DNA of 56,970 bases from Candidatus Nanoarchaeia archaeon (GTDB taxonomy: Archaea; Nanobdellota; Nanobdellia; SCGC-AAA011-G17; GW2011-AR18), in the NCBI GenBank assembly GCA_035655455.1, contig DASRUL010000005.1, positions 1-56,970 of the forward strand, in the 5' to 3' direction. Shown here one piece after another: positions 1,862 to 49,856 of this stretch. Within the stretch, counting starts at the first letter, position 1. Each line of letters begins with the position of its first letter. A program made the position numbers and the translations under genes. Under the pieces are notes generated by a model. That model worked only from the letters and a program-made list of their open reading frames with translations. It was not told the origin of the DNA and searched no databases.

Positions 1862-2344
1862 ATGAAAAACGGAATAGAACTAGTAAGAACAAGCTCAACT
1901 GTAGGAGAAATAAACCTTCACTTACAGTTAACACCAGCATACAGAAGAGACATCTTCTCCAACGAACAAGTAAAGGAGCTAACAAAAACATACTTCCTGG
2001 AGAAAGCAAAGAAACTCGGAATAATTATCGCCGCCTTAGACTTCGGTCCTGACCACTTCCACGCTTTCATAAGCAACTGGAAACATCACAGCGTTGAAAA
2101 ACTCGCTAACGAACTCAAAGGATTCACAAGCTACATGATGCGCAAGCATCATTGGGACTTATTCAGAAATAAACTTTGGGGAAACAAATTTTGGAGCGAA
2201 GGATACTTCTACAGAACAGTTGGAATAGTAACAGCAGAAGCAGTAAAATACTACGTAGAACACGGACAACAAAAACACTGGCAAGCAGTAGATTATGCTT
2301 ACTACAAAGACAAACAACAAGCCCTCCTCGCACAATTTTCTTAA
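1862..2344 (+). CDS. tnpA: IS200-type Y1 HUH transposase TnpA
   Basis: 160 aa. HUH motif in PDHFHAFI. Catalytic-Tyr region FWSEGYFYRTVG matches the IS200 pattern FW.RGY...TVG. AGGA-type RBS upstream. Confidence 0.8.
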   Translation: MKNGIELVRTSSTVGEINLHLQLTPAYRRDIFSNEQVKELTKTYFLEKAKKLGIIIAALDFGPDHFHAFISNWKHHSVEKLANELKGFTSYMMRKHHWDLFRNKLWGNKFWSEGYFYRTVGIVTAEAVKYYVEHGQQKHWQAVDYAYYKDKQQALLAQFS

Positions 2345-3785: not shown

Positions 3786-5174
3786 CTAAAGCGACGCAAC
3801 AGCCTTCACTCCCCACCACGCCTTCTTCACCTCAAGCATCGACCTCAACTTTACAACTCTTTTTGCTATATACGCTGGCCTGAAATAAAACTCCTTATAC
3901 GCCCTCTTTAGCAAGTCTTGAAGCTCCTCAGGCCGCATCGAATTCGGGACAAACACCATATGATTCTCTGTTCTCTTACTCAAGTCCTGATCGACAATCG
4001 TTCCTGTCTCAGTAGCAATCCTGTCAAACTCTGTTCCTGGCAACGGGGTCATCGGAAAGAACTTTACATAATCAGGATCAAGCTTCTTAATCTCTCTAAT
4101 CGTTTCAAGGCCTTCCTGATAAGTCTCACCGGGCGTTCCGAAGATAAAAGAGCATTCGCTCTCAATCCCAAACTCCTTACACCCTTTAATCGCGGCATGA
4201 ATCTGAGGAACAAGTACACCTTTCTTTAGCGTGTTTAACTGCTTTTGATTCATCGATTCCACCCCAAAGAAGATTTTCCAACACCCAGCATCAGCCATCC
4301 TCTCCAAGAGCTCCCTATCTAACGTGTTCACACGAGAATTACAGCACCACACAAGGTCCCAGCTCTCTTTTTTAATCAAATCCATCATCTCCAAGACCCT
4401 CTTCTTATTCAACGTAAACGTGTCATCCCAAAACGTGATGTCCTTTACCTTGTATTCATTGACTAAAACCCTCATCTCTTCCAACACATTCTGCGGTGAT
4501 CTGAAATAGGCCTTCGTGTTTCCAGAAGAGCAAAAAATACATTGGTATGGACAACCTCTTGTCGTAATCATATTCGTGACAGGCAGGCGCTTATACTGCT
4601 CCAGCGCTGGAACGTAATCATGGATATTCACAAGATGACGCGCAGGAAAAGGGATCTCGTCCAAATTCGTCAACCTCGGCGCGGGAGGACCAACAACAAT
4701 TCCTCCATCGCCACGAACAATCAGCCCCGTCATCCCAGCCAACGGCTTTCTTTGTTCTAAGGCGTTCGCTAGATTTTCCATCGCAAACTCAGCCTCACCC
4801 AACAACGCAGCGTCAATAGAGCTACACTCCCACAAGGCCTTTTCCTTAATTTGGCTTACATGATGACCACCAACAGCAATAAACGTATTAGGATGTCTCG
4901 CTTTCAAATCCATACACCATGTCTTCACCTTCTCCCATAAAAACGTCATCACATTCAACGCCACGATATCAGGCTCAAACTTATAAATCGCATCATTCAT
5001 CTCAAAAATATCCTTCATCGACCCATCAAGAACAATCACCTTATGACCAGCCTTCTCCAACACGGCAGCAATATATAAAATTCCCAACGGTGGAAAGGTT
5101 CCAGCAGCCTTCGCGATCGCCTTGTTATACCTTTCCTCAAACGAATGCGGAGGAAGAACCAACGCAATTTTCAT
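3786..5174 (-). CDS. B12-binding (class B) radical SAM enzyme
   Basis: N-terminal B12-binding-domain pattern (MKIALVLPP...PPLGILYIAAVLEKAGHKVIVLDG) and cluster motif TTRGCPYQCIFCSS. ATG at 5174 preferred over the track's TTG at 5189. Confidence 0.8.
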   Translation of the reverse strand: MKIALVLPPHSFEERYNKAIAKAAGTFPPLGILYIAAVLEKAGHKVIVLDGSMKDIFEMNDAIYKFEPDIVALNVMTFLWEKVKTWCMDLKARHPNTFIAVGGHHVSQIKEKALWECSSIDAALLGEAEFAMENLANALEQRKPLAGMTGLIVRGDGGIVVGPPAPRLTNLDEIPFPARHLVNIHDYVPALEQYKRLPVTNMITTRGCPYQCIFCSSGNTKAYFRSPQNVLEEMRVLVNEYKVKDITFWDDTFTLNKKRVLEMMDLIKKESWDLVWCCNSRVNTLDRELLERMADAGCWKIFFGVESMNQKQLNTLKKGVLVPQIHAAIKGCKEFGIESECSFIFGTPGETYQEGLETIREIKKLDPDYVKFFPMTPLPGTEFDRIATETGTIVDQDLSKRTENHMVFVPNSMRPEELQDLLKRAYKEFYFRPAYIAKRVVKLRSMLEVKKAWWGVKAVASL

Positions 5175-5193
5175 AGCACTCTCCCGCAAGGAA

Positions 5194-13930: not shown

Positions 13931-15409
13931 TTAAGCGTACGCTGGCTGCGATGGAGATCTAATGTAGGGCAATGACTTCAACACAACCTTACTGAACAAA
14001 TTGTCCTTATGAGAATACTTCTTCTGCAAAGAACTTAATATCTGCAGCTCGGTCGGATGCTCAAAATCCTTCTCTCTCAGCCTTTTTTCAGGAATCTTAG
14101 AAAGGATGGGGATATTTACCTCTCTCAACGGCAACAAATTGAAATAATCCCTGATCCTCCTGAAATACGCGGAATCCTTCACCCAATCCAGCCACGTCAA
14201 CTGCAAATTCCCAGCCCAACGATCGAGACAATCCCAATCCTCAGTCTTTGTGGGAGGAACAAAGCCCATCCTCAACGCAGTATCATATAAGTCAGATCCA
14301 GGATACGGCAGGTAAAACCCGAAACTAAACCTCGCCTTTGGATTCACCTGACTCAACTCCAACGCCAGATCAATAGTCTGGAAGGTCTCCTCCTTTGTCT
14401 CAGTCGGCAGACCCATAATAAACGAACCAACAGGCTTCACGTCAGGCGCTTTTGTCAGATTTCTTATGCCTCTCTTGATGTGATCAACAGTTTGCAACTT
14501 CTTCATCATCGCCAACAAGCGATTGCTTCCAGACTCCAATCCCAACAAGAGCTCCCTGCATTGCGTCTCTACGAGTTTCTTAACCAAGGGCTCGTCAAGC
14601 ATGCCCACACGCACCTCCCCATACCACGGAAGCTTTACCTCCTCAAGAATCCTTATCGCGCGCTGTGGATCAGAAAAAATAAGATCATCATAAAACTTAA
14701 TCCCATCAATATTATACATATCCTTCAAATACTTCACCTTCTCGACAACCTTCTTCTCTGACATCGCCCTCCACCTTCTCAAATTAAACCTCAAATTATA
14801 ACAGAATTTGCAATCAAACGGACAGCCCCTGCTCGTGATAAACCCAAGCACTCTCTTGTTACTCCACTCACGCTCCAAATGATCCTCCACATTTATCAAA
14901 TCAAAATCCAAATCCAGTTGGTCAAGATCTTCAATTAACGGTCTTGGAGCATTTACTACAGGAACACCATTATTCTTAAAACATAACCCCAGAATTTCTT
15001 CAGGCTTCACCTTTCCTTCCAACATCCTTACAATGTCCAGAATAATCGTGTCACCCTCACCATTCGCAACATAATCAATATAATCCTCTTTCACTGTCTC
15101 CCTCGGAAGCAAGGTTGGATGCACACCCCCCCACAAGATTGGTAGCTCTGGCTTCTCAGCTTTCAACATCTTTGAAAGATTCGCACTCTCTCTTGTTTGG
15201 TTTCCTGTGATCACTGAAAGACCAACAAGCATCGGATCAACACTCAAAATGTCTTTGACTGCAGCCTGCAGTTTTTCAGAATTCACATGAAACACCTTCG
15301 GCTCGTACCCAGCTTTTTTCAAGGTGTCCCCAACAAAGAGAAGCGCAAGTGGCGCTATTCTCATATCCTCAGGGTTACTGATCTGCACCAGCGCGATAGG
15401 TTTTTCCAT
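13931..15409 (-). CDS. B12-binding (class B) radical SAM enzyme
   Basis: N-terminal B12-domain pattern (IAPLALLFVGDTLKKAGYEPKVFHV) and TSRGCPFDCKFCYN. Confidence 0.8.
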   Translation of the reverse strand: MEKPIALVQISNPEDMRIAPLALLFVGDTLKKAGYEPKVFHVNSEKLQAAVKDILSVDPMLVGLSVITGNQTRESANLSKMLKAEKPELPILWGGVHPTLLPRETVKEDYIDYVANGEGDTIILDIVRMLEGKVKPEEILGLCFKNNGVPVVNAPRPLIEDLDQLDLDFDLINVEDHLEREWSNKRVLGFITSRGCPFDCKFCYNLRFNLRRWRAMSEKKVVEKVKYLKDMYNIDGIKFYDDLIFSDPQRAIRILEEVKLPWYGEVRVGMLDEPLVKKLVETQCRELLLGLESGSNRLLAMMKKLQTVDHIKRGIRNLTKAPDVKPVGSFIMGLPTETKEETFQTIDLALELSQVNPKARFSFGFYLPYPGSDLYDTALRMGFVPPTKTEDWDCLDRWAGNLQLTWLDWVKDSAYFRRIRDYFNLLPLREVNIPILSKIPEKRLREKDFEHPTELQILSSLQKKYSHKDNLFSKVVLKSLPYIRSPSQPAYA

Positions 15410-29632: not shown

Positions 29633-32140
29633 TTACACGCATCGCCCAGAATTACAAACTTTTAAGTTCGGGCATTGTGAATTAGACGTGCAAGCCGAGC
29701 ATAGCCATCCCCCTGGAGTTAGAGCGCAGTATCCAGACCGGCATTGCGAAGATCTCAAACATACACCGCCATTCCTGATGCTGCTGGCTCCGCAAACTCT
29801 TCTGGTCTGGTATTGGATGCAGGCTCCCGAGGAACAATCAGAATCTACTGTGCACAATGAGCCATCAGGCAAATTGGTTTGCGCTTGGCTGGAGCAGACA
29901 TTGTTCAGACAATTAAACGATTGGCACTGGATGCTTAAGCTGCAGGATGCGCCAGCCTGAAGATTGGATGGCAGGCAGGTCAGTCTGCTTGATCCGGCAG
30001 GATATCTGCATAAATTGGAGCTGCATTCTGAATCAGTTGAACATGATGCGCCATAGCCTAAACTTCCTGTCTCAGCCAAGCAGAATTTACCTTGTCCTGC
30101 AGGATTATTGATGCAATTTCCGGATAAGCATTGGTTATGGTTTTCACAGGTTTCACCGACGGAAAATCCGGCTATACAGAATTTTGCGTTTATTGGTCCT
30201 CGGCATAAATTAGGAGCGGGGCACTCTTCGTTGTACCAGCAGGAATCTCCGATGTTTTTTAAAGGTATACATTGTTTTTGAGTAAATTGACCGATTCGTC
30301 TACATGATCCGGAAAGGCATTGCGCATCTACATAACAGTTCTGATAATCTTCGAAGTTAGAGTTGAGGCATATTTTTTCTCCAAGAGGATCACTTGCGCA
30401 AAGATTTGAGGTACACTGGCGACTAGTTGAACAGAATCTATCTTTAGTGAGCCCAGAAGGGAGACATTGTTTAATTCTTATTCCTTGCGGATAATCGCAC
30501 ACTCCGGAAATGCATTCAGCGTCATTGGAGCAGGTATAACCGCCGCGTCCATGCAAATTTCCAGTGCATATTCCGCGTAGATCTACTTGGCCGGTAGTCT
30601 CAATCATTCGATAACATATATGAGCTTCATTTATTTCTTCGTAATTTCTTTGTGAGAATATTATGTTTCCATCATTACCAAAACCAGAAGCGAGATGCCC
30701 AGCACCACCACCCATGACTGACATCTCAGTTGGTTTAACTAAAAAAAAAGCGTAAGAACATCCATTAAATACATTAGGCCACCAAGGTTTAGAACTCGGT
30801 AGACAATTAGGGTATAGTGGAAAAGGATATCCTGGGTTCGTGGTATATTCATCAGCAAGATTGCCAAACGAGTGTCCTACTTCGTGAAGAAATGTAATTA
30901 TAATGTTGTTCCAAACAGTACTGTCATCATCGCTTAACCAAACTCGTGAATTTCCGCCCATCACGAAAGAGAACCATCGGTCAAAATTAGCAGAAGATTT
31001 GCATTTATCCCTAAGCACGTAAATAATATTAGTATTGGATAACCCGCAGGGCTCAATTGGATTATATCGATCGCACGTCTCTTTAAGATCATTGCGAGAG
31101 GAGGGTAAAGGTAAATCCTGATCCAGATACCAGAAATTGAACAAATGATTATTGTACTTAAAAGGATCCATTCCAAACAAGCCAGATGTTGATCTTTTTC
31201 GGAGGTCTTCTCGGGTATATCGTTCTGTTACTCCTTTCGCATTATAATCAATCATCTCTAACAAATATTTTGTAAACTCCGGAAGTCCTCGTTGATCCCG
31301 ACCGTAACCTAGCCCCACAAAAACAAGGTTAACTCGGTTTTCGCCCAAAGCGTTATGCCCAGGAAAAATTTCTTTGTAACCAGTACACTCCTGCTGGAAG
31401 GTATTGCCTTCATCGCTGTTAATCCCCACTAACGTTCGTTCAGACGAACCATCTACTGTTCTTCCAGTAATTAAAGAGGGCTGGCTTCCTCCCACGGATA
31501 CGGGAGTTATTGAAGAACTCATCAATTCAAAATATTCCCGGTTTCCAGAGCTGGAAACAGCATATTCTTGGTCAGAAACAACCGCTCCTTTATTAGAGAT
31601 TATCTGCAATCTTGCCGGGCTGTTGGCTAAAGGCCTTTCCACGGTAAATCTAACTTCCACTTCCGTTTTAGAACTTTCTTTAATATTTCCTAAATTAATG
31701 GTTCCATCGTCATTAAACTGTTCGGAGATCTCTAAAGTGGTCAGGCCAAAAAATTGCGTATAATCTTGGCTGTTAACATTCAAAACTGCCCGGTAAATTT
31801 CTTCCTGATTTAATCCTCCGGCTTCCTGAGCCTGAGTTCTATATTCTTCAATTTTCCTGGTTGCTTCTGAAGACTGAGTGTACATTCGCGCCTGTTTCAA
31901 TTTCCAATTGCCGGTGTCCAAAACCAAGGCATAGACATAATGCCGTATCCCTTCAGAAGTCATCGGGCTAATTTCTCCCCGGATGGAGCTTGCTGTTGAT
32001 TTGCTTGCAGAAAATTTGTTGAAATCAGTTGAGAAAGCCTGCCCGACAAAATTCTCATTTCCAATAATGATCACTCCGGAAATTACTGCCAGCAACAGAA
32101 CAAGTATTACATAATGAACTTGCTTAAAACCTCTTTTCAT
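29633..32140 (-). CDS. secreted or anchored M64-like zinc metallopeptidase with a C-terminal array of ~10 four-Cys modules
   Basis: 835 aa. N-terminal TM/signal anchor (VHYVILVLLLAVISGVIIIG). FLHEVGHSFGNLADEY (30845-30886) matches my recollection of the M64 IgA-peptidase-like HExxHxxGxxxDEY signature. The last 301 aa are Cys-rich repeats. Confidence 0.65.
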   Translation of the reverse strand: MKRGFKQVHYVILVLLLAVISGVIIIGNENFVGQAFSTDFNKFSASKSTASSIRGEISPMTSEGIRHYVYALVLDTGNWKLKQARMYTQSSEATRKIEEYRTQAQEAGGLNQEEIYRAVLNVNSQDYTQFFGLTTLEISEQFNDDGTINLGNIKESSKTEVEVRFTVERPLANSPARLQIISNKGAVVSDQEYAVSSSGNREYFELMSSSITPVSVGGSQPSLITGRTVDGSSERTLVGINSDEGNTFQQECTGYKEIFPGHNALGENRVNLVFVGLGYGRDQRGLPEFTKYLLEMIDYNAKGVTERYTREDLRKRSTSGLFGMDPFKYNNHLFNFWYLDQDLPLPSSRNDLKETCDRYNPIEPCGLSNTNIIYVLRDKCKSSANFDRWFSFVMGGNSRVWLSDDDSTVWNNIIITFLHEVGHSFGNLADEYTTNPGYPFPLYPNCLPSSKPWWPNVFNGCSYAFFLVKPTEMSVMGGGAGHLASGFGNDGNIIFSQRNYEEINEAHICYRMIETTGQVDLRGICTGNLHGRGGYTCSNDAECISGVCDYPQGIRIKQCLPSGLTKDRFCSTSRQCTSNLCASDPLGEKICLNSNFEDYQNCYVDAQCLSGSCRRIGQFTQKQCIPLKNIGDSCWYNEECPAPNLCRGPINAKFCIAGFSVGETCENHNQCLSGNCINNPAGQGKFCLAETGSLGYGASCSTDSECSSNLCRYPAGSSRLTCLPSNLQAGASCSLSIQCQSFNCLNNVCSSQAQTNLPDGSLCTVDSDCSSGACIQYQTRRVCGASSIRNGGVCLRSSQCRSGYCALTPGGWLCSACTSNSQCPNLKVCNSGRCV
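29636..30538 (-). other. protein-level tandem array of ~10 four-Cys modules (C-x5-C-x3/4-C-x6-12-C)
   Basis: Examples: TCSNDAECISGVCDYPQGIRIKQC, FCSTSRQCTSNLCASDPLGEKIC, NCYVDAQCLSGSCRRIGQFTQKQC, TCENHNQCLSGNCINNPAGQGKFC, SCSTDSECSSNLCRYPAGSSRLTC, LCTVDSDCSSGACIQYQTRRVC. Confidence 0.7.
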
Positions 32141-32146
32141 GTTCTT

Positions 32147-32410
32147 CTATTCTGGTGTTATACAGAATGGTTGCGGTGGGTAGGACTCTAATAAGCCGCA
32201 TCCATTTCTATTTCCACACCGGTCTTCGCAATATTGGGAAAATTCTTGATAACTCAGGCATTTTTGTCCAGTTTCTATCGCATAGCAATTTAGTCCGGCA
32301 GGGCAATTTCCTTCATTATTGCAGGAAACAAAATTATTTCTGGTGGCGCTTTGACATGCCGTCAATATTAATGAGGTGAGCAAGGATAATATCAACAATA
32401 GTTTTTTCAT
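32147..32410 (-). CDS. small Cys-rich putative lipoprotein containing one copy of the same Cys module
   Basis: 87 aa. Signal peptide plus lipobox-like LILTAC. SCNNEGNCPAGLNCYAIETGQKC fits the module of the downstream gene. It ends 6 nt before the M64-like gene start, and a TATA-like box lies upstream inside the element. Confidence 0.6.
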   Translation of the reverse strand: MKKLLLILSLLTSLILTACQSATRNNFVSCNNEGNCPAGLNCYAIETGQKCLSYQEFSQYCEDRCGNRNGCGLLESYPPQPFCITPE

Positions 32411-32446
32411 CTATTAAAGAAGAATTAACTAGTATAAAAATGTTAT

Positions 32447-32469: not shown

Positions 32470-32553
32470 TTTTTTATTCTTGATGCGAGAAAACTATCCA
32501 CTTTAGTGGACTGAGATGAATCGCATTCTATTTGAATTCTGAAAAATTAAAAT

Positions 32554-32580
32554 GCATGGCGAGCGAAGCTTGCGCCATGC
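32554..32580 (+). repeat. strong hairpin upstream of the second tnpA
   Basis: GCATGGCG-a-GCGAAGC-tt-GCGCCATGC. An 8-bp outer stem encloses a GCGAAGC mini-hairpin. Confidence 0.5.
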
Positions 32581-32634
32581 ACTTTTCACTAAAGTTCAAC
32601 ATAGCGTTAGCTCTCCTCCGCCAGGAGCACAAAA

Positions 32635-33057
32635 ATGGAATACACACGTCATGCGCACAGCGTCGGAGACAACTTTTGGCACATAGAATGGTGTCCAAAG
32701 TACCGCTATAACATATTTGAGAAATTTAAGTATAAGAACCTTGCGGAAGCCTGCATCCGCAAAGTGGCCAAAGAACACAGCCTTGTGATTCACGAACTGC
32801 AAGTCATGCCTGATCACTTGCACTGTGTCGTTAGCATTCCAGATACAATGAGCATCTCAGAAGCAACAAGACTTCTGAAAGGAAGAAGCAGTTACTTGTT
32901 CTTCCGCAATCATGAGAAAGCACGATTACGCTATCCACAAGGACATTTGTGGAGCGTTGGAACATTCAGAACAAGTGTAGGTCACTCAGATCTTCCAACT
33001 ACTCTTCGTTACGTAAGAGAACAACAAGAATATCATGCAGTAGCATCACCCGCATGA
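32635..33057 (+). CDS. tnpA: IS200-type HUH transposase homolog lacking the catalytic tyrosine
   Basis: 140 aa. WHIEWCPKYRYNIF, HUH in PDHLHCVV, and KGRSS are all IS200-like. The FW.RGY..TVG region reads LWSVGTFRTSVG (Thr110, ACA at 32962-32964). AGGAG RBS 9 nt upstream. Confidence 0.75.
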   Translation: MEYTRHAHSVGDNFWHIEWCPKYRYNIFEKFKYKNLAEACIRKVAKEHSLVIHELQVMPDHLHCVVSIPDTMSISEATRLLKGRSSYLFFRNHEKARLRYPQGHLWSVGTFRTSVGHSDLPTTLRYVREQQEYHAVASPA

Positions 33058-36620: not shown

Positions 36621-38208
36621 TCCACTCAATTCTGTAAATTGTCACCTTCCAAGACTCATCTTCCCCATACACTTTTCTAAAAAATCCAGGGACATTCCTC
36701 TCCTGCAACAACGGCTTTAACGCAGGCCTCAACTCAATATATTTAGGATCAATCACAGCATAATCAACCTTTAACCTTCTCATCCCATCTAGCGTTTCCT
36801 CGAACGTTTCAGCATACGGATACAACGACGTCTTTATTTTCCCAGAAACAAACCCTTTTCCCTCGAACCTCGCATCAGGCAAATACCTCATAATATGACT
36901 TTGACCTTCGAGCACCATTATGTATCCCTCAGCATTGTCAGCCAGCCACAACGCCCAACCAGCCTCCTTATTTAACGGATCATTCTCCAACGAATTCAAC
37001 GAGACAGTACTATCACGCAAGCCAAACCCAATCACAACAAGGACAAAAACCGTCCAGATCAGATACTTATACCTCTGATTTTTCGCTAACACCCCCATTC
37101 CGGCAACAGCGAGCATCAGCACCAAGGGCACTAACGGATAAAAATACCGAGGATAAGTAAATGTGCCATAGACTGGAAGATGTGACAACACCCAAAACCC
37201 AGGCACCACCAAGAACCCAGCCAGGATCGCTTTTTCCTTTTTAAAAAAGTACAGCAACCCGACCAAGAACGGCAAGATCAACAACGGACCAACAATCACA
37301 ACAACCAAGGAATAAGCCATCTTCACACTTCCAGAAAAGGCAAATTTATTCAGGATTGTTCCGAAACTATTTTCTTTTACATACTCTATTAACGAAGGAG
37401 GCTCAACATTCGGGCTCCATGCTTCCTGACCAGAACTCAACAAGAACCCACTCTCACCTCCAAAATCAAACGGAGAACCATACACAACAGCCCGCAACCC
37501 GAGATACGGCAGCAAGACCAACCCGAAAACAACCAACATTATTCCCACGCGCCTCCAAGAAAAATCGTGAATTTCCTTTCTCAGCAACAACACAGCAAGA
37601 AGAACACCACCAAGAACGAACAACCCATTCACTCTCACCAAAAAACACAAACCAGCGAAGATTGTTGCCATGTACGCGAACTTCATACCCTCTTTTATTC
37701 TCAATGAGCAATACACCACAAACAAGAAGACCAACATGAACAGCGACTCACTCATCCCAGAAACAGCAGTGATCACCATCACATAGCTCATCCCGAACAG
37801 CACCAACACCGCCAACGTTTCTCCCTTTCCTAGTATCCTTCTCGCAATCAACCACAACGGGACAAATACAAAACCTCCAACAACAGCAGAAGCAACCCTC
37901 AACACATACTCCTGAAACGCGAACGACCTTTCAAGAAAAGGAAGGAAAAACAACGAGGCAACCAACGGCCAACCCATCGCACCAGCTTGTATTGGAATAA
38001 AATTCCCGGCAAGAATCTCTCTCACCTTTAACAAATACACAAACGCGTCCTGCCTCAAGATCGCGTCAGGAATCAGCGCTATCCTTAAAATCAAACCAGC
38101 CAAGAATAACAACGGAACAACAATCTTTTCGTTCTCCACGAGAACCCTTCCAAACCTCACGCAAGAGGCTTCAATCCTCTCCAAAACCCCCTCAACAAGC
38201 TCAGTCAT
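36607..38208 (-). CDS. GT-C-like polytopic membrane glycosyltransferase
   Basis: About 12 TM helices plus a soluble C-terminal domain. The ATG at 38208 overlaps the carbamoyltransferase stop by 8 nt. Confidence 0.55.
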   Translation of the reverse strand: MTELVEGVLERIEASCVRFGRVLVENEKIVVPLLFLAGLILRIALIPDAILRQDAFVYLLKVREILAGNFIPIQAGAMGWPLVASLFFLPFLERSFAFQEYVLRVASAVVGGFVFVPLWLIARRILGKGETLAVLVLFGMSYVMVITAVSGMSESLFMLVFLFVVYCSLRIKEGMKFAYMATIFAGLCFLVRVNGLFVLGGVLLAVLLLRKEIHDFSWRRVGIMLVVFGLVLLPYLGLRAVVYGSPFDFGGESGFLLSSGQEAWSPNVEPPSLIEYVKENSFGTILNKFAFSGSVKMAYSLVVVIVGPLLILPFLVGLLYFFKKEKAILAGFLVVPGFWVLSHLPVYGTFTYPRYFYPLVPLVLMLAVAGMGVLAKNQRYKYLIWTVFVLVVIGFGLRDSTVSLNSLENDPLNKEAGWALWLADNAEGYIMVLEGQSHIMRYLPDARFEGKGFVSGKIKTSLYPYAETFEETLDGMRRLKVDYAVIDPKYIELRPALKPLLQERNVPGFFRKVYGEDESWKVTIYRIEWNDEE

Positions 38209-40960
38209 CAGCAAACGCCTCGCTATCCCACATATCCTGAGCATTATCAGCGCGCCTAATCAGGAAACGATCCATCACCAAACAATCAATCCCCGTACCC
38301 ATCATACATCTATACGCCTCTTCAGGCTTACACACAATCGGCTCACCACGAATATTGAACGAGGTATTTATCAGCACAGGAACGCCGCTTAACTTTCCAA
38401 ACTCCTTAATCACCTCATAATATCGAGGATTCTGCTCCTTTCTTATCGTCTGCAACCTTCCAGTACCGTCAACATGCGTCACCGCAGGCAACAACTTTTG
38501 TTTCTCTTTCCTAATAGGATACACCAATAACATAAAATCAGCAGCCAACGGAATAGGATCGTCACACTCAAAATATTTCGGAGCGTCCTCAACGCATACC
38601 ACAGGAGCGAACGGCCTAAAACTGTTTCCACTAAAAACAATCTTTTCATCTCTTTTTACACAGAGCAGATTATACTTAGGAACCTTAACACAATATACTT
38701 TTCCATTATAATCTATTAAACCACTTTGATTTTTCCTGACATAAGATATCTTACTTCCTTTATTTAGTCTTACATAATAAGTAATATTATGTTTTGGATT
38801 CTTAGGAACTTCTGTTGATGTCGTTATACTATAGTCCAGTTTTAAACCTAACTCTTGGACTTCATCCGCTAATCTTTTACTTGTAGTCGTGTACTTATAC
38901 TGCTTTTTCCTAGGTGTTCCATCACCGCGCATCAACGCATCGAACAAGATCTTTAACTGTCTTTCGCTTAACTCTAAAAATTCTCTCGGTATGAACTTGC
39001 TCTTTGCTTTACCAAACTGTTTTAGATATTCAAAAAGCTGTTTGTTTCCCTTTATAAAACTTCCAGAATTATATCTCCATTGGTATATCTTGTTTAGACA
39101 CCCCTTCATTCTTCTATAATATTTTGAACTTACATTCTGAGAAATGTAAATATTGTGCTTTCCTTGATCATAACAACAACATCCTTCAGACAGATAATAT
39201 CCAAAAAATTCCAACCATAAATCCATAGGTATCTTATCTTTCTCAATAATATGACCATACTTTTTTCTTACAATTTTTGGTATTAAAAAATATTTTTTTT
39301 CTTTTCCATTCCATTTCTCAATTGCTTTGATCTGAATATTTTCTTTACACACTAGTCTTTTAGCTTCTTCAAATCCAAATCTATTCACATAAATACTGTC
39401 TCTATGATTAGTTATCTTTTTTGCCCACATATTATGTTCAGGCGTCACAACTAGATTTATTCTTTTGTTCTTGAAATATACCATCTTGCCTGTGTAATTG
39501 TACTCCATTCTTTTCTCTATTCTTTGATACACCAACTCTTTCGTTTTTGGATTCAATGTTGCTACTTTATCGTCTTTAGTCAGTTCTTTGAATGATTTCC
39601 ACCCCTCCTTTGTTAAAATTTGAGTTTGATCATCATAACACTCCCTATGCTTCACCTTGAGATTAAGAATTTCCTGCATCTTCGGATTACAAGGATTAGA
39701 AAGGATGCTTCTTGCGCCTAACGCCCTCGGACCAAACTCCATCCTTCCCTGAAACCAGCCAACAACATTGTTCTCGTAAATCAACTTCCCAACAGTCTCG
39801 ACTAATTCTTTTCCAGATCTAAATTCATTATATTTAATTCTGTTTTTATCCAAGTACTCTTTGATCTCTTTTTGATCATATCCAGGACCAAGATACGAAT
39901 GCTCCATCACGACATTCCTCTTGTTTTTAAAAAGACTAAAATACACAAAAGCAGCAGCGCCAACACTAGTGCCGCCGTCGCCAGCAGCAGGCTGAATAAA
40001 CAACGACTTAAACGGAGTTTTTTTCAAGATCTTCCCATTCGCCAAACTATTCAACGCGACACCCCCAGCCATACACAGATTCTTAGATTTGTACTTTTTA
40101 TGCAATGCGTTCAAGATTTTGAATAGTATCTCCTCTGTTAATTTCTGGACCGAAGATGCTATATCCTGATAATACTCCGTCATTGCCTCACTTTTTTTTC
40201 TCGACGGACCAAACTCTTGTATGAACTTTTTCGAAGGCATCGCCATCTTATAATGATACACGAAGTACTCCATATTCAACATGAAACTCCCGTCTTCCTT
40301 AACTTCTATTAACTTTCTTACTTTGTCAACATATTTTGGCTTTCCATACGCGCTCAATCCCATAGCTTTATACTCTCCGGAATTTGCCGTGAACCCCAAA
40401 AATACAGTAAATGTACTATACAACAACCCCAACGAATGAGGAAAACGAATCTCCTTCTCCAACACTAATTTATTATCCTTCGCATAGCCCGCAGTAGCAG
40501 ACGCCCACTCTCCTACCCCATCAACTGTCAACAAGACCGCGTCCTTAAACGGACTCATCAAATAAGAACTCGCGGCATGCGCAAGATGATGCTCAACAAA
40601 ATACACTTCCCCATCAAATCCCACCTTTTTCTTAATAATTCCACGAATCCTCAACTTTTCATTAATCCAAGATGGCATTGTCTTGTTGAAGGCAAACAAA
40701 CCGCGAGGAAAAGAATCCACAAATTGACTCATCACTCTCTCAAACTTTACTAGTGGTTTCTCATAAAAAGCGACAGCATCAAGCTCCTTTCCAGAAACAC
40801 CAGCCTCCTTTAAACAATACTTAATCGCGTTTATTGGAAAAGAGGCATCATGCTTTTTCCTTGTGAAGCGCTCTTCCTCCGCAGCAGCAATCAGCTTCCC
40901 ATCTTTGAGTATACACGCAGACGAGTCATGAAAGAATGCTGAAATACCTAATATAATCAT
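38201..40960 (-). CDS. NodU/CmcH/SxtI-family carbamoyltransferase interrupted by an intein
   Basis: N-terminus MIILGISAFFHDSSACILKDGKLIAAAEEERFTRKKHD...HHLAHAASSY...; C-terminal part ...FRPFAPVV...THVDGTGRLQT...LINTSFNIRGEPIV. 919 aa versus the ~580 I expect for this family. Confidence 0.85.
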   Translation of the reverse strand: MIILGISAFFHDSSACILKDGKLIAAAEEERFTRKKHDASFPINAIKYCLKEAGVSGKELDAVAFYEKPLVKFERVMSQFVDSFPRGLFAFNKTMPSWINEKLRIRGIIKKKVGFDGEVYFVEHHLAHAASSYLMSPFKDAVLLTVDGVGEWASATAGYAKDNKLVLEKEIRFPHSLGLLYSTFTVFLGFTANSGEYKAMGLSAYGKPKYVDKVRKLIEVKEDGSFMLNMEYFVYHYKMAMPSKKFIQEFGPSRKKSEAMTEYYQDIASSVQKLTEEILFKILNALHKKYKSKNLCMAGGVALNSLANGKILKKTPFKSLFIQPAAGDGGTSVGAAAFVYFSLFKNKRNVVMEHSYLGPGYDQKEIKEYLDKNRIKYNEFRSGKELVETVGKLIYENNVVGWFQGRMEFGPRALGARSILSNPCNPKMQEILNLKVKHRECYDDQTQILTKEGWKSFKELTKDDKVATLNPKTKELVYQRIEKRMEYNYTGKMVYFKNKRINLVVTPEHNMWAKKITNHRDSIYVNRFGFEEAKRLVCKENIQIKAIEKWNGKEKKYFLIPKIVRKKYGHIIEKDKIPMDLWLEFFGYYLSEGCCCYDQGKHNIYISQNVSSKYYRRMKGCLNKIYQWRYNSGSFIKGNKQLFEYLKQFGKAKSKFIPREFLELSERQLKILFDALMRGDGTPRKKQYKYTTTSKRLADEVQELGLKLDYSITTSTEVPKNPKHNITYYVRLNKGSKISYVRKNQSGLIDYNGKVYCVKVPKYNLLCVKRDEKIVFSGNSFRPFAPVVCVEDAPKYFECDDPIPLAADFMLLVYPIRKEKQKLLPAVTHVDGTGRLQTIRKEQNPRYYEVIKEFGKLSGVPVLINTSFNIRGEPIVCKPEEAYRCMMGTGIDCLVMDRFLIRRADNAQDMWDSEAFADD
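38624..39640 (-). other. intein (339 aa) with a LAGLIDADG-type homing-endonuclease domain
   Basis: Residues 441-779. Starts at Cys (TGT, 39638-39640; CYDDQTQILT). Block B is VVTPEHNMW. Dodecapeptide-like motifs LWLEFFGYYLSEGC and LKILFDALMRGDGT. Ends VFSGN (AAC, 38624-38626) followed by Ser+1. The exteins rejoin as KHRE|SFRPFAP. Confidence 0.8.
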
Positions 40961-48458: not shown

Positions 48459-49856
48459 ATGAAAATCCTTCTCATCAACCCCCCCTTAGAACACCAAGCA
48501 CGCTGGGATGTTTCACAAATTGCTTACCCGCCTCTAGGAATCCTCTGGATAGCTGCCATGCTCGAGAAAGAAGGTCACCACGTCAAATTCTTAGATGGCG
48601 ACTGCTGGAAATTTGACATTCTTGAAGAAATCAAAAACTACAATCCCAGACTTGTAGGACTAGCAGTCATCACCATCAAAGTCAACAGCGCAGCAGCCAT
48701 GATCCACCAAATCAAAGAAGTATACCCACAATTACCTGTTGTCGTTGGCGGGAACCACATCACCAACGTCAAACAACAATCCTTTGACCAAATCCCGGGA
48801 GCAGACTACCTCATGATCGGAGAAGCGTACTATACCTTTCCAGAACTTGCGCACGCACTCGAACAAAATACCAACCTCTCAACCATCAGAGGCCTCATCT
48901 GGAAAGAAGACGGAAACATTATCACCAACAAGTCCCGACCAGACATTCAAGACTTAGACATTCTCCCCTTCCCTGCACGACACCTCCTTCCCCAACCCTT
49001 CACTACTCACTACCAGTCAGACACGCGTTACTTAAGAAAACCGAGCACAAGCATGATCACCAGCCTCGGCTGCTACTACAGATGCACCTTCTGCGACCAC
49101 ACGAGGAACGTCAGATTCTTCTCTCCAAAAAGAGTCGTAGATGAAATCGAACACTTGCAAAAAATCTACGGCATCAAAGAAATCCACTTCTGGGACGAAA
49201 TTTTCACCATGACCCCAAAACGCACACGCGAAATCTGCCAAGAAATTATCGACCGCAACATTGATATCACCTGGAGCGGATACGGAAGACTCGATATTAT
49301 CGCACGAAACCCCGACTTAGTGCCACTCATCAAAAAATCAGGATGCTGGTTCATGTCCTTCGGCGTCGAATCAGGAAGCCAAAAAGTCAGAGACTTCATT
49401 AAAAAAGATCTTACAGACGAACAAATACGACAAGCTGCGGAAACCCTTGCAGCAGCAGGCATCTATACCCGAGGTTTATTCATGCTCGGACATCCTACTG
49501 AAACTCTCGAAACTCTTGAACAAACCATCCAATTCGCCAAAACCTTACCTCTCAACTCTGCGCAATTCAACCTCAACATACCCCTTCCAGGAACAGAGCA
49601 GTACGCTAACGCTAAAGACTATGGAATCCTTGATGAGGAACGCTTCAAAGATTACTCAGGGCATGGAAAACCTATCTACATTCCCAACGGACTCACTGCA
49701 GAAATCCTTGAAGAAGCCCAAAAACGCGCCTACAAAGAATTCTTCGCACGACCCCAAGTCTTCTTCAGAAACGCACGCTTCGTCCTCAGAAGTCCAGACA
49801 GCATCAAAAAATACAGCAAAAAATTCGTTACTATTATGACTGGGGGAAAACTATAA
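48459..49856 (+). CDS. B12-binding (class B) radical SAM enzyme
   Basis: MKILLINPP...PPLGILWIAAMLEKEGHHVKFLDG and TSLGCYYRCTFCDH. Paralog of 3786..5174. Confidence 0.8.
   Translation: MKILLINPPLEHQARWDVSQIAYPPLGILWIAAMLEKEGHHVKFLDGDCWKFDILEEIKNYNPRLVGLAVITIKVNSAAAMIHQIKEVYPQLPVVVGGNHITNVKQQSFDQIPGADYLMIGEAYYTFPELAHALEQNTNLSTIRGLIWKEDGNIITNKSRPDIQDLDILPFPARHLLPQPFTTHYQSDTRYLRKPSTSMITSLGCYYRCTFCDHTRNVRFFSPKRVVDEIEHLQKIYGIKEIHFWDEIFTMTPKRTREICQEIIDRNIDITWSGYGRLDIIARNPDLVPLIKKSGCWFMSFGVESGSQKVRDFIKKDLTDEQIRQAAETLAAAGIYTRGLFMLGHPTETLETLEQTIQFAKTLPLNSAQFNLNIPLPGTEQYANAKDYGILDEERFKDYSGHGKPIYIPNGLTAEILEEAQKRAYKEFFARPQVFFRNARFVLRSPDSIKKYSKKFVTIMTGGKL

Follow-up and report, generated by a model that had tools for sequence, protein, structure and literature searches.

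A divergent M64-type metallopeptidase with a ten-module cysteine tail, and a small candidate lipoprotein gene upstream of it, on a contig of a nanoarchaeial genome

What kind of system is encoded by two adjacent reading frames of a Candidatus Nanoarchaeia archaeon, the one for a protease-like protein with a long cysteine-rich tail, the other for a small cysteine-rich protein? They lie on contig DASRUL010000005.1, of which a stretch of 56,970 nt (positions 1 to 56,970, hereafter the window) was analysed. The larger open reading frame (ORF; 29633–32140, minus strand) encodes 835 aa and its ATG is situated 6 nt past the stop codon of the smaller one (32147–32410, minus strand), which encodes 87 aa. 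A first, sequence-only reading had taken the pair for an M64-like metallopeptidase fused to about ten four-cysteine modules and preceded by a lipoprotein bearing one copy of the same module, the two forming an extracellular two-component system; both ORFs are present exactly as it described them. Judged from sequence and predicted structure, the 835-aa protein is a divergent M64/igalysin metzincin with an intact predicted active site. For the locus as a whole we favour, with moderate confidence, a surface-tethered M64 protease equipped with a disulfide-stabilised binding arm, its gene being co-transcribed with that of a small lipoprotein.

The extent of the larger frame is backed by comparison. 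The same 835-aa call (P0155) is found on 16 public contigs, and the only close orthologue, P0002 (818 aa, 48% identity over 97% coverage), is alignable from the first residues. One public annotation of the same contig starts instead at an internal GTG, giving a 669-aa product (P0001) without the signal anchor and with little of the N-terminal domain; P0019, stored as a separate entry, is a 106-aa fragment from the N-terminus of the protease.

M64 peptidases are the igalysin family of the metzincins, characterized by the motif HExxHxxxGxxD, with an Asp as third zinc ligand 11 residues past the first His, and by a Met-turn (PMC12237041). The proposal that the 835-aa protein belongs among them is supported both by its relatives and by its predicted fold. 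An exhaustive profile search, with residues 40–535 and the orthologue as query, recovered 405 cluster representatives at E ≤ 1e-3, 94 of them at E ≤ 1e-10, nearly all with the motif HExxHxxxxLxDEY; the clusters are made at 50% identity, and 405 is a lower bound on the size of the clade. Searches based on word indexing had returned just 2 proteins for the full-length query, 5 for the profile of the catalytic domain and 4 for that of the tail. Among 72 scanned relatives, 53 match Pfam Peptidase_M64 at E ≤ 0.001 (best 7.6e-15), and two relatives, from metagenome-assembled genomes (MAGs) of Bilamarchaeaceae and Nanoarchaeota, are named “M64 family metallopeptidase” at NCBI. A catalytic-domain profile built from 23 sequences matches the solved M64 structures 3P1V (E 1.8e-11) and 4DF9/9QDI (E 1.3e-10) and the IgA protease of Thomasclavelia ramosa (E 2.3e-4), the alignment to solved M64 enzymes beginning at a LF..EPF..N..FN motif, including the zinc motif and ending at the Met-turn. 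The HExxH region is thus aligned to M64 by profile search, and it is also aligned by predicted structure: with the AlphaFold2 model of the full protein, Foldseek found 13 matches in the PDB at E ≤ 1e-3, all of them chains of the M64 entries 9QDI, 4DF9 and 3P1V (E 1.7e-9 to 7.5e-8, probability 1.0), the next match being at E 0.02. These alignments span about 540 columns, that is the N-terminal and the catalytic domain. From the profile and Foldseek matches, a metzincin-type catalytic domain of the M64/igalysin kind is placed at residues 235–530 (30551–31438, minus strand).

The predicted active site is complete. Residues 417–432 read FLHEVGHSFGNLADEY, in which the stretch HEVGHSFGNLADEY (residues 419–432; 30845–30886, minus strand) aligns to the HEFGHSFGGLADEY motif of 4DF9/3P1V. 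By conservation and by this alignment, with the roles of catalytic residues taken from PMC12237041 and PMC12402451, H419, H423 and D430 are the putative zinc ligands—D430 the third—and E420 the putative general base, followed by E431 and Y432. The arrangement H419-E420-x2-H423-x6-D430 keeps the His-to-Asp spacing of the IgA protease of T. ramosa (H539...D550) and is invariant in 23 aligned relatives; more widely, H419, E420, H423, L428, D430, E431, Y432 and M476 are invariant or nearly so in alignments of 23 and of 72 relatives. M476 (30713–30715, minus strand), near-invariant in the family, is the predicted methionine of the Met-turn: by profile alignment alone, it corresponds to the Met of C-R-M in BF3526 and BACOVA_00663 and of C-I-M-R in the T. 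ramosa IgA protease.

The divergence of the protein is nonetheless substantial, and several points weigh against a plain M64 assignment. For the Pfam model (PF09471) the window protein scores 20.9 bits as a whole and 24.4 bits over residues 230–535, below the gathering cut-off of 26, and the match is confined to the motif region; its closest relatives P0003, P0016, P0017, P0022, P0038, P0040 and P0047 likewise fall under the cut-off. The Foldseek TM-scores are modest (0.39–0.47 on the target). The model has a mean predicted local-distance difference test (pLDDT) score of 70, and while it reaches 80–95 in the N-terminal domain and the upper catalytic subdomain, the lower subdomain is of low confidence. 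Finally, BF3526 holds a second zinc site formed by E323, the Glu of DEY, together with C398, C409 and C412 (PMC12402451), and of these only the Glu is kept in the window protein, as E431; by profile alignment alone, C398 corresponds to S474, a near-invariant Ser in the clade, and the columns aligned with C409 and C412 are not Cys columns. In place of this triad the clade has its own invariant pairs, N445-C446 (PNC446) and G460-C461 (GC461SY). The Gly of the zinc motif is also displaced: position +8 is occupied by N427 and a Gly is found at +7, the same arrangement being seen in P0002. In the general metzincin motif HExxHxxG/NxxH/D, lower pappalysins have an Asn at the equivalent Gly position (PMC12237041).

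Upstream of the catalytic domain, residues 62–206 (31523–31957, minus strand) form a predicted beta-sandwich domain as in BF3526, modelled mostly at pLDDT 80–95, recognised by Foldseek and kept in P0003–P0012, with no Pfam match over these residues. The protein starts with a hydrophobic helix (residues 1–35; 32036–32140, minus strand; helix 5–26 in the AlphaFold model), predicted as a signal anchor or a cleavable signal peptide, where many relatives have a lipobox. This segment ends in NFVGQA (residues 31–36; 32033–32050, minus strand). A motif of the form [hydrophobic]-x-G-[Q/E/K/R/H]-A, located 6–20 residues after the hydrophobic segment, occurs in 17 of 135 relatives and in none of the 135 in a control window; relatives with and without a lipobox both display it, and it could serve in processing or sorting.

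How does this protein compare with the known M64 enzymes? The Bacteroides proteins BF3526 (4DF9, 9QDI) and BACOVA_00663 (3P1V) are its only significant fold matches and its best profile matches. They share with it the two-domain core, beta-sandwich plus metzincin, the zinc motif HExxHSFGxLADEY with an Asp as third ligand, the Met-turn and the motif LF..EPF.S.K..FN; they are exported and surface-anchored, as the window protein is predicted to be. On the other hand, the aligned identity is only about 11–12%, the window protein is the one lying under the Pfam cut-off, it has a hydrophobic N-terminal segment for their lipobox and the PNC...GCSY Cys pair for their Cys triad, and it carries a Cys-rich tail of 300 aa and ten modules that they do not have. 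The IgA protease of T. ramosa (IgAse/ThomasA, the M64 holotype; 9EKK, 9QDH) possesses the same igalysin domain, in which the HExxHxxxGxxD spacing and a Met-turn are recognised (PMC12237041). Like the window protein, it has accessory modules, rich in Cys/His, on the C-terminal side of the catalytic domain, and it is attached to the cell surface, as the window protein is predicted to be. It differs by its C-type-lectin-like N-terminal domain, its wrapping FN3 domain, its His2Cys2 zinc-binding domains and its sortase anchor. Its profile match is weak (the E value of 2.3e-4 given above) and nothing points to an immunoglobulin as substrate of the window protein.

The tail is an unusual feature of the protein. 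Out of 48 Cys, 8 are found in residues 252–525 and 40 in residues 537–834. The last 301 aa had been proposed to consist of about ten modules of pattern C-x5-C-x3/4-C-x6-12-C: the number holds, since these 40 Cys make exactly ten groups, but the spacing has to be corrected to C-x5-C-x4/5-C-x4-10-C, with linkers of 2–13 residues. The ten tandem four-Cys modules (residues 534–835; 29636–30541, minus strand) have the consensus G-x2-C-x5-C-x-S-G/N-x-C-x4-10-C and a period of about 31 aa; a hidden Markov model (HMM) of the module finds all ten at 23–38 bits, the remainder of the six-frame translation of the window giving at most about 8 bits. In the AlphaFold model each module is predicted as a short turn followed by a beta-hairpin, with pLDDT 70–90 for modules 1–6.

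The array appears to be old. No tandem repeat is detectable in it at the DNA level, which argues for an old array and rules out a recent duplication of modules. The modules are one-for-one orthologous in P0002; moreover, in P0002, P0003, P0016 and P0022 the catalytic domain gives way to the array at an equivalent position, so that the fusion should be older than this subclade. Excluding the Cys, modules 1, 6, 8 and 9 are 65–86% identical to those of P0002, compared with 51% for the catalytic domain and 22–25% for modules 3, 4 and 10. Modules 1, 6, 8 and 9 being thus more constrained than the enzyme itself, the pattern of conservation suggests that the tail carries a specific binding surface and is not a mere spacer.

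Two observations weaken this proposal. Modules 7–9, the most conserved, are the worst modelled (pLDDT 30–50), and the Cys of the tail could bind metal rather than form disulfides. The main alternative to a binding arm is that the modules have no specific ligand and serve as a rigid, inert stalk or scaffold, or else bind metal, the protein being just a nutritional peptidase of an auxotrophic cell. In myxobacterial TraA, a cell-surface receptor, Cys-rich repeats (TIGR04201) are presumed to be structural regions (PMC3325183), and the last module of the window protein resembles them weakly (14 bits against a cut-off of 25); besides, little beyond the Cys is conserved in modules 3, 4 and 10, and BF3526 trims pre-digested peptides (PMC12402451), which would agree with a nutritional role. 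However, the conservation of modules 1, 6, 8 and 9 exceeds the needs of a spacer, and the array is membrane-distal instead of lying between the anchor and the enzyme. We hold the inert array as possible but unlikely, and retain the binding arm.

Does the module belong to a described family? It had been left without a name in the sequence-only reading, and this was confirmed: all matches of the window protein to curated repeat families of Pfam and NCBIfam are sub-threshold (EB 20.2 bits for a cut-off of 24.3; Dickkopf_N 17.5 for 25; DUF7107 15.6 for 24.6; TIGR04201 14 for 25, on the last module), like the Colipase match on the tail of the orthologue (16 for 27). For the tail (model of pLDDT 69), Foldseek gave no match at E ≤ 1e-3, all E values being at least 0.15; the best, non-significant, resemblances are to colipase (1LPB, E 0.15, probability 0.87–0.99), to the C-terminal domain of Dkk1 (3S2K, E 0.23, probability 0.89) and to knottins. 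Dickkopf_N (PF04706), EB (PF01683), colipase (PF01114) and the TraA repeat nevertheless display the same type of core, C-x2-D/N-x2-C-x-S-G-x-C, and predicted hairpins; the window module differs by its four Cys and its period, the Dickkopf domain having 10 Cys and the TraA repeat 3–5. A repeat recently reported in 2026, “CysRRep” (Cx6-9Cx5-7Cx8-11Cx7-8CC), was discarded as its spacing is different. Repeats of the type G-x2-C-x2-D/N-x2-C-x-S-G-x-C are also present in the bacterial lipoproteins P0167–P0169, of which P0168 passes the Pfam cut-offs for Dickkopf_N and EB. The module should therefore be regarded as an uncurated member of a loose and widespread class of disulfide hairpins, and not as a unique invention.

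The succession of a metzincin and a presumed ligand-binding, disulfide-rich region recalls the ADAM/adamalysin proteins, in which the metzincin is followed by disintegrin and Cys-rich regions. ADAM proteins belong to M12B, not M64, and the window protein has no disintegrin match: the likeness is architectural only. A relative encoded outside the window, the M64-like P0047 (1294 aa, 126 Cys), does contain 8 Disintegrin (PF00200) stretches on the N-terminal side of its catalytic domain (57 bits for a cut-off of 35), an ADAM-like combination in a protein of prokaryotic type.

We now turn to the 87-aa ORF: is it a gene, and is its product related to the modules? The signal peptide and lipobox attributed to its product are borne out. 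The protein starts with MKKLLLILSLLTSLILTAC, where K2K3 and a hydrophobic core precede L16-T17-A18-C19; these four residues satisfy the lipobox consensus [LVI][ASTVI][GAS]C, and lipoproteins are predicted to be common in DPANN archaea (PMC12462473). With this Sec-type signal peptide and C19 as lipobox Cys, the candidate small lipoprotein would have a mature part of 68 residues with 8 Cys; the Pfam model LPAM_1 gives it 12.1 bits for a cut-off of 20. A TATA-like box, TTTTTATA (32433–32440, minus strand), is situated 23–30 nt upstream of the ATG and is the probable promoter of a leaderless bicistronic transcript. Such a distance is characteristic of this genome: a TATA-like hexamer lies at −36 to −24 from the start codon of 16 out of 48 genes in the window, against 2.5% of random positions, which indicates that the transcription units are mostly leaderless and of archaeal type. 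No TATA-like box precedes the protease gene in the window; at the P0002 locus, where the small ORF is missing, the protease gene has its own, about 30 nt upstream. Because of the signal peptide and lipobox, the 8 mature Cys, the TATA box, the gap of only 6 nt and the lack of any such box in front of the protease gene, we regard the 87-aa ORF as probably a real gene, the first of a two-gene transcript that includes the protease.

This conclusion has to be weighed against the possibility that the 87-aa ORF is no gene but a fortuitous frame within the leader sequence at the 5' end of the protease transcript, next to an IS200 element. Gene callers left it uncalled on 7 contigs carrying the same DNA, a collection of 15 billion proteins does not contain its exact sequence, and no homologue was found, although the metagenome collection scanned apparently lacks the contigs of the window, which makes this null a weak one for the 87-aa protein. 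Its codon log-likelihood (−0.15) is below that of 93% of nested spurious ORFs and below all but 1.7% of true-gene windows. All these results go against a real gene. The codon-usage score is however an ambiguous indicator for the 87-aa ORF, because the adjacent and real protease gene is itself an outlier in the window; and the in-frame codon score of the small ORF beats those of both other frames. Likewise the differences in the small ORF among the near-identical contigs L013–L019 consist of N calls alone, so that no evolutionary signal can be drawn from them. Also against a chance ORF, the frame combines a KK n-region, a hydrophobic core, a perfect lipobox, an even number of mature Cys and an ATG at the distance from a TATA box that is usual in this genome. 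We consider a chance ORF rather improbable, and keep the reading of a small lipoprotein gene transcribed with the protease gene.

By contrast, the copy of the module that the 87-aa protein was said to contain did not withstand the comparison. Its first four mature Cys are spaced 5/5/8, as in module 4, but its score with the module HMM (5.1–5.7 bits) is at chance level: of 2000 shuffles that preserve composition, 99 do as well or better. Compared with the modules, the protein obtains an hhalign probability of 3.6% and a BLASTP E value of at least 2.6, and it matches no Pfam or NCBIfam family, repeat or inhibitor. Nor is it a regular companion of such proteases, as no small exported Cys-rich ORF is found upstream of the M64-like gene at the P0002 locus and at 14 further related loci. 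The 87-aa ORF is thus a lineage-specific addition and not a conserved partner, without demonstrable homology to the modules.

These results bear directly on the two proposals that would couple the products. According to the first, both proteins contain the module and work jointly, as a two-component protease/adhesin pair directed at the surface of a host. The proximity of the genes and their probable single promoter, the export and Cys-richness predicted for both products, the module-4 spacing in the small protein and a similarly low GC content at third codon positions (GC3) would fit such a pair; the chance-level module match, the absence of the small ORF from the 15 related loci and its lack of homologues in the searched collections make it improbable, and the two-component system of the sequence-only reading is not sustained. 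In the second, by analogy, the 87-aa lipoprotein would be a cognate inhibitor or immunity factor shielding the surface of the producer from the metzincin. Small periplasmic inhibitors (Inh/AprI) are encoded beside serralysin genes, and the 87-aa ORF is similarly placed, directly upstream of a metzincin gene in the same transcription unit, its product being predicted small, exported and disulfide-rich like many protease inhibitors. Yet no similarity to an inhibitor family of Pfam or NCBIfam was found, the weak resemblance to knottin inhibitors concerns the tail modules of the protease and not the small protein, and the 15 related protease loci have no such neighbour; we give an inhibitor little credence.

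In the arrangement that we favour—a tethered protease with a binding arm and a co-transcribed lipoprotein gene—the 835-aa protein would be an extracellular zinc endo- or oligopeptidase, held at the cell surface by its N-terminal hydrophobic segment. H419, H423 and D430 would bind the catalytic zinc, E420 would activate the water molecule and M476 would form the Met-turn. In BF3526 the N-terminal domain gates the active site (PMC12402451); by analogy, the N-terminal domain of the window protein probably limits the access to the cleft, so that flexible peptides or termini would be cut rather than folded proteins. The ten modules, most likely disulfide-stabilised beta-hairpins, would extend away from the membrane as a long arm resistant to proteases, and this arm, with modules 1, 6, 8 and 9 the most constrained, probably binds a substrate, a matrix or a partner cell. 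The 87-aa ORF would encode a small Cys-rich lipoprotein and be transcribed from its own TATA box, together with the protease gene. An ADAM-convergent protease–adhesin device of an episymbiont, in which modules 6–9 would form the surface recognising a partner or host and the 87-aa lipoprotein a membrane-tethered inhibitor or docking regulator, is very improbable.

The genomic context gives little help. In the window the neighbours encode glycosyltransferases, a flippase, an MraY/AglH-like glycosyltransferase of family GT4, PMT_2 proteins, a GDSL hydrolase and methyltransferases. An NCBIfam scan of these neighbours pointed to no particular taxon. The gene of P0002 is flanked by Mre11/Rad50 genes on one side and DUF460/MBOAT genes on the other, and its contig also carries an archaeal EF-1alpha gene. 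The promoter architecture of the window, this orthologue's contig and the labelled relatives in Woesearchaeota, Nanoarchaeota and Bilamarchaeaceae, next to others in Patescibacteria, suggest an archaeal origin of DPANN type. As the neighbourhoods differ, the context provides no functional clue, which does not favour the arrangement proposed above, and a functional link to the surrounding island of glycosylation genes was rejected, the orthologue being in an unrelated neighbourhood.

Both ORFs are compositional outliers: GC3 is 0.37 for the protease gene and 0.36 for the 87-aa ORF, against a window mean of 0.47 ± 0.06. The codon-usage score of the protease gene is the lowest among the longer ORFs taken as genes, that of the 87-aa ORF being lower still, and the GC skew is −0.06 in 30001–32000, against about −0.2 to −0.47 elsewhere in the window. 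This odd composition could result from the amino-acid composition of the products or from a foreign origin.

A few other elements of the window deserve mention. An IS200/IS605-type Y1 transposase gene (32635–33057, plus strand) lies roughly 225 nt away from where the 87-aa ORF starts, with a hairpin of 13-nt arms (32549–32585) just upstream of it; a second IS200 transposase gene is found at 1862–2344 (plus strand), and as the two copies display no DNA similarity to each other, the ends of the elements are not definable by comparison. A 919-aa carbamoyltransferase (38201–40960, minus strand; Carbam_trans_N at residues 3–336, Carbam_trans_C at 779–903) is split by about 330 residues with a LAGLIDADG_3 match at 675–735; this insert is probably an intein with a homing endonuclease. 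Three paralogous genes of B12-binding radical S-adenosylmethionine proteins (3786–5189, 13931–15409 and 48459–49856) are scattered in the glycosyltransferase/methyltransferase/PMT_2 island, which spans most of the window.

To our knowledge, M64/igalysin peptidases are known almost solely from gut bacteria, as an IgA protease and as peptide trimmers of Bacteroides. The locus described here is part of a sizeable divergent M64 clade, of at least 405 representatives at 50% identity, the closest relatives being missed by the Pfam cut-off. Members with a taxonomic label belong to DPANN archaea (Woesearchaeota, Nanoarchaeota, Bilamarchaeaceae), to Patescibacteria, also called the candidate phyla radiation (CPR), and to a few other MAGs. 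A known family is thus extended and an uncurated repeat is flagged; it is not a new kind of system, but a note on the locus and a curated model would be worthwhile. For binding tests, the unevenly conserved Cys modules offer a concrete construct. Members of the clade have repeatedly gained disulfide-rich accessory modules, and in organisms that depend on other cells, exported proteases of this sort are candidate tools for nutrient acquisition or for surface interaction.

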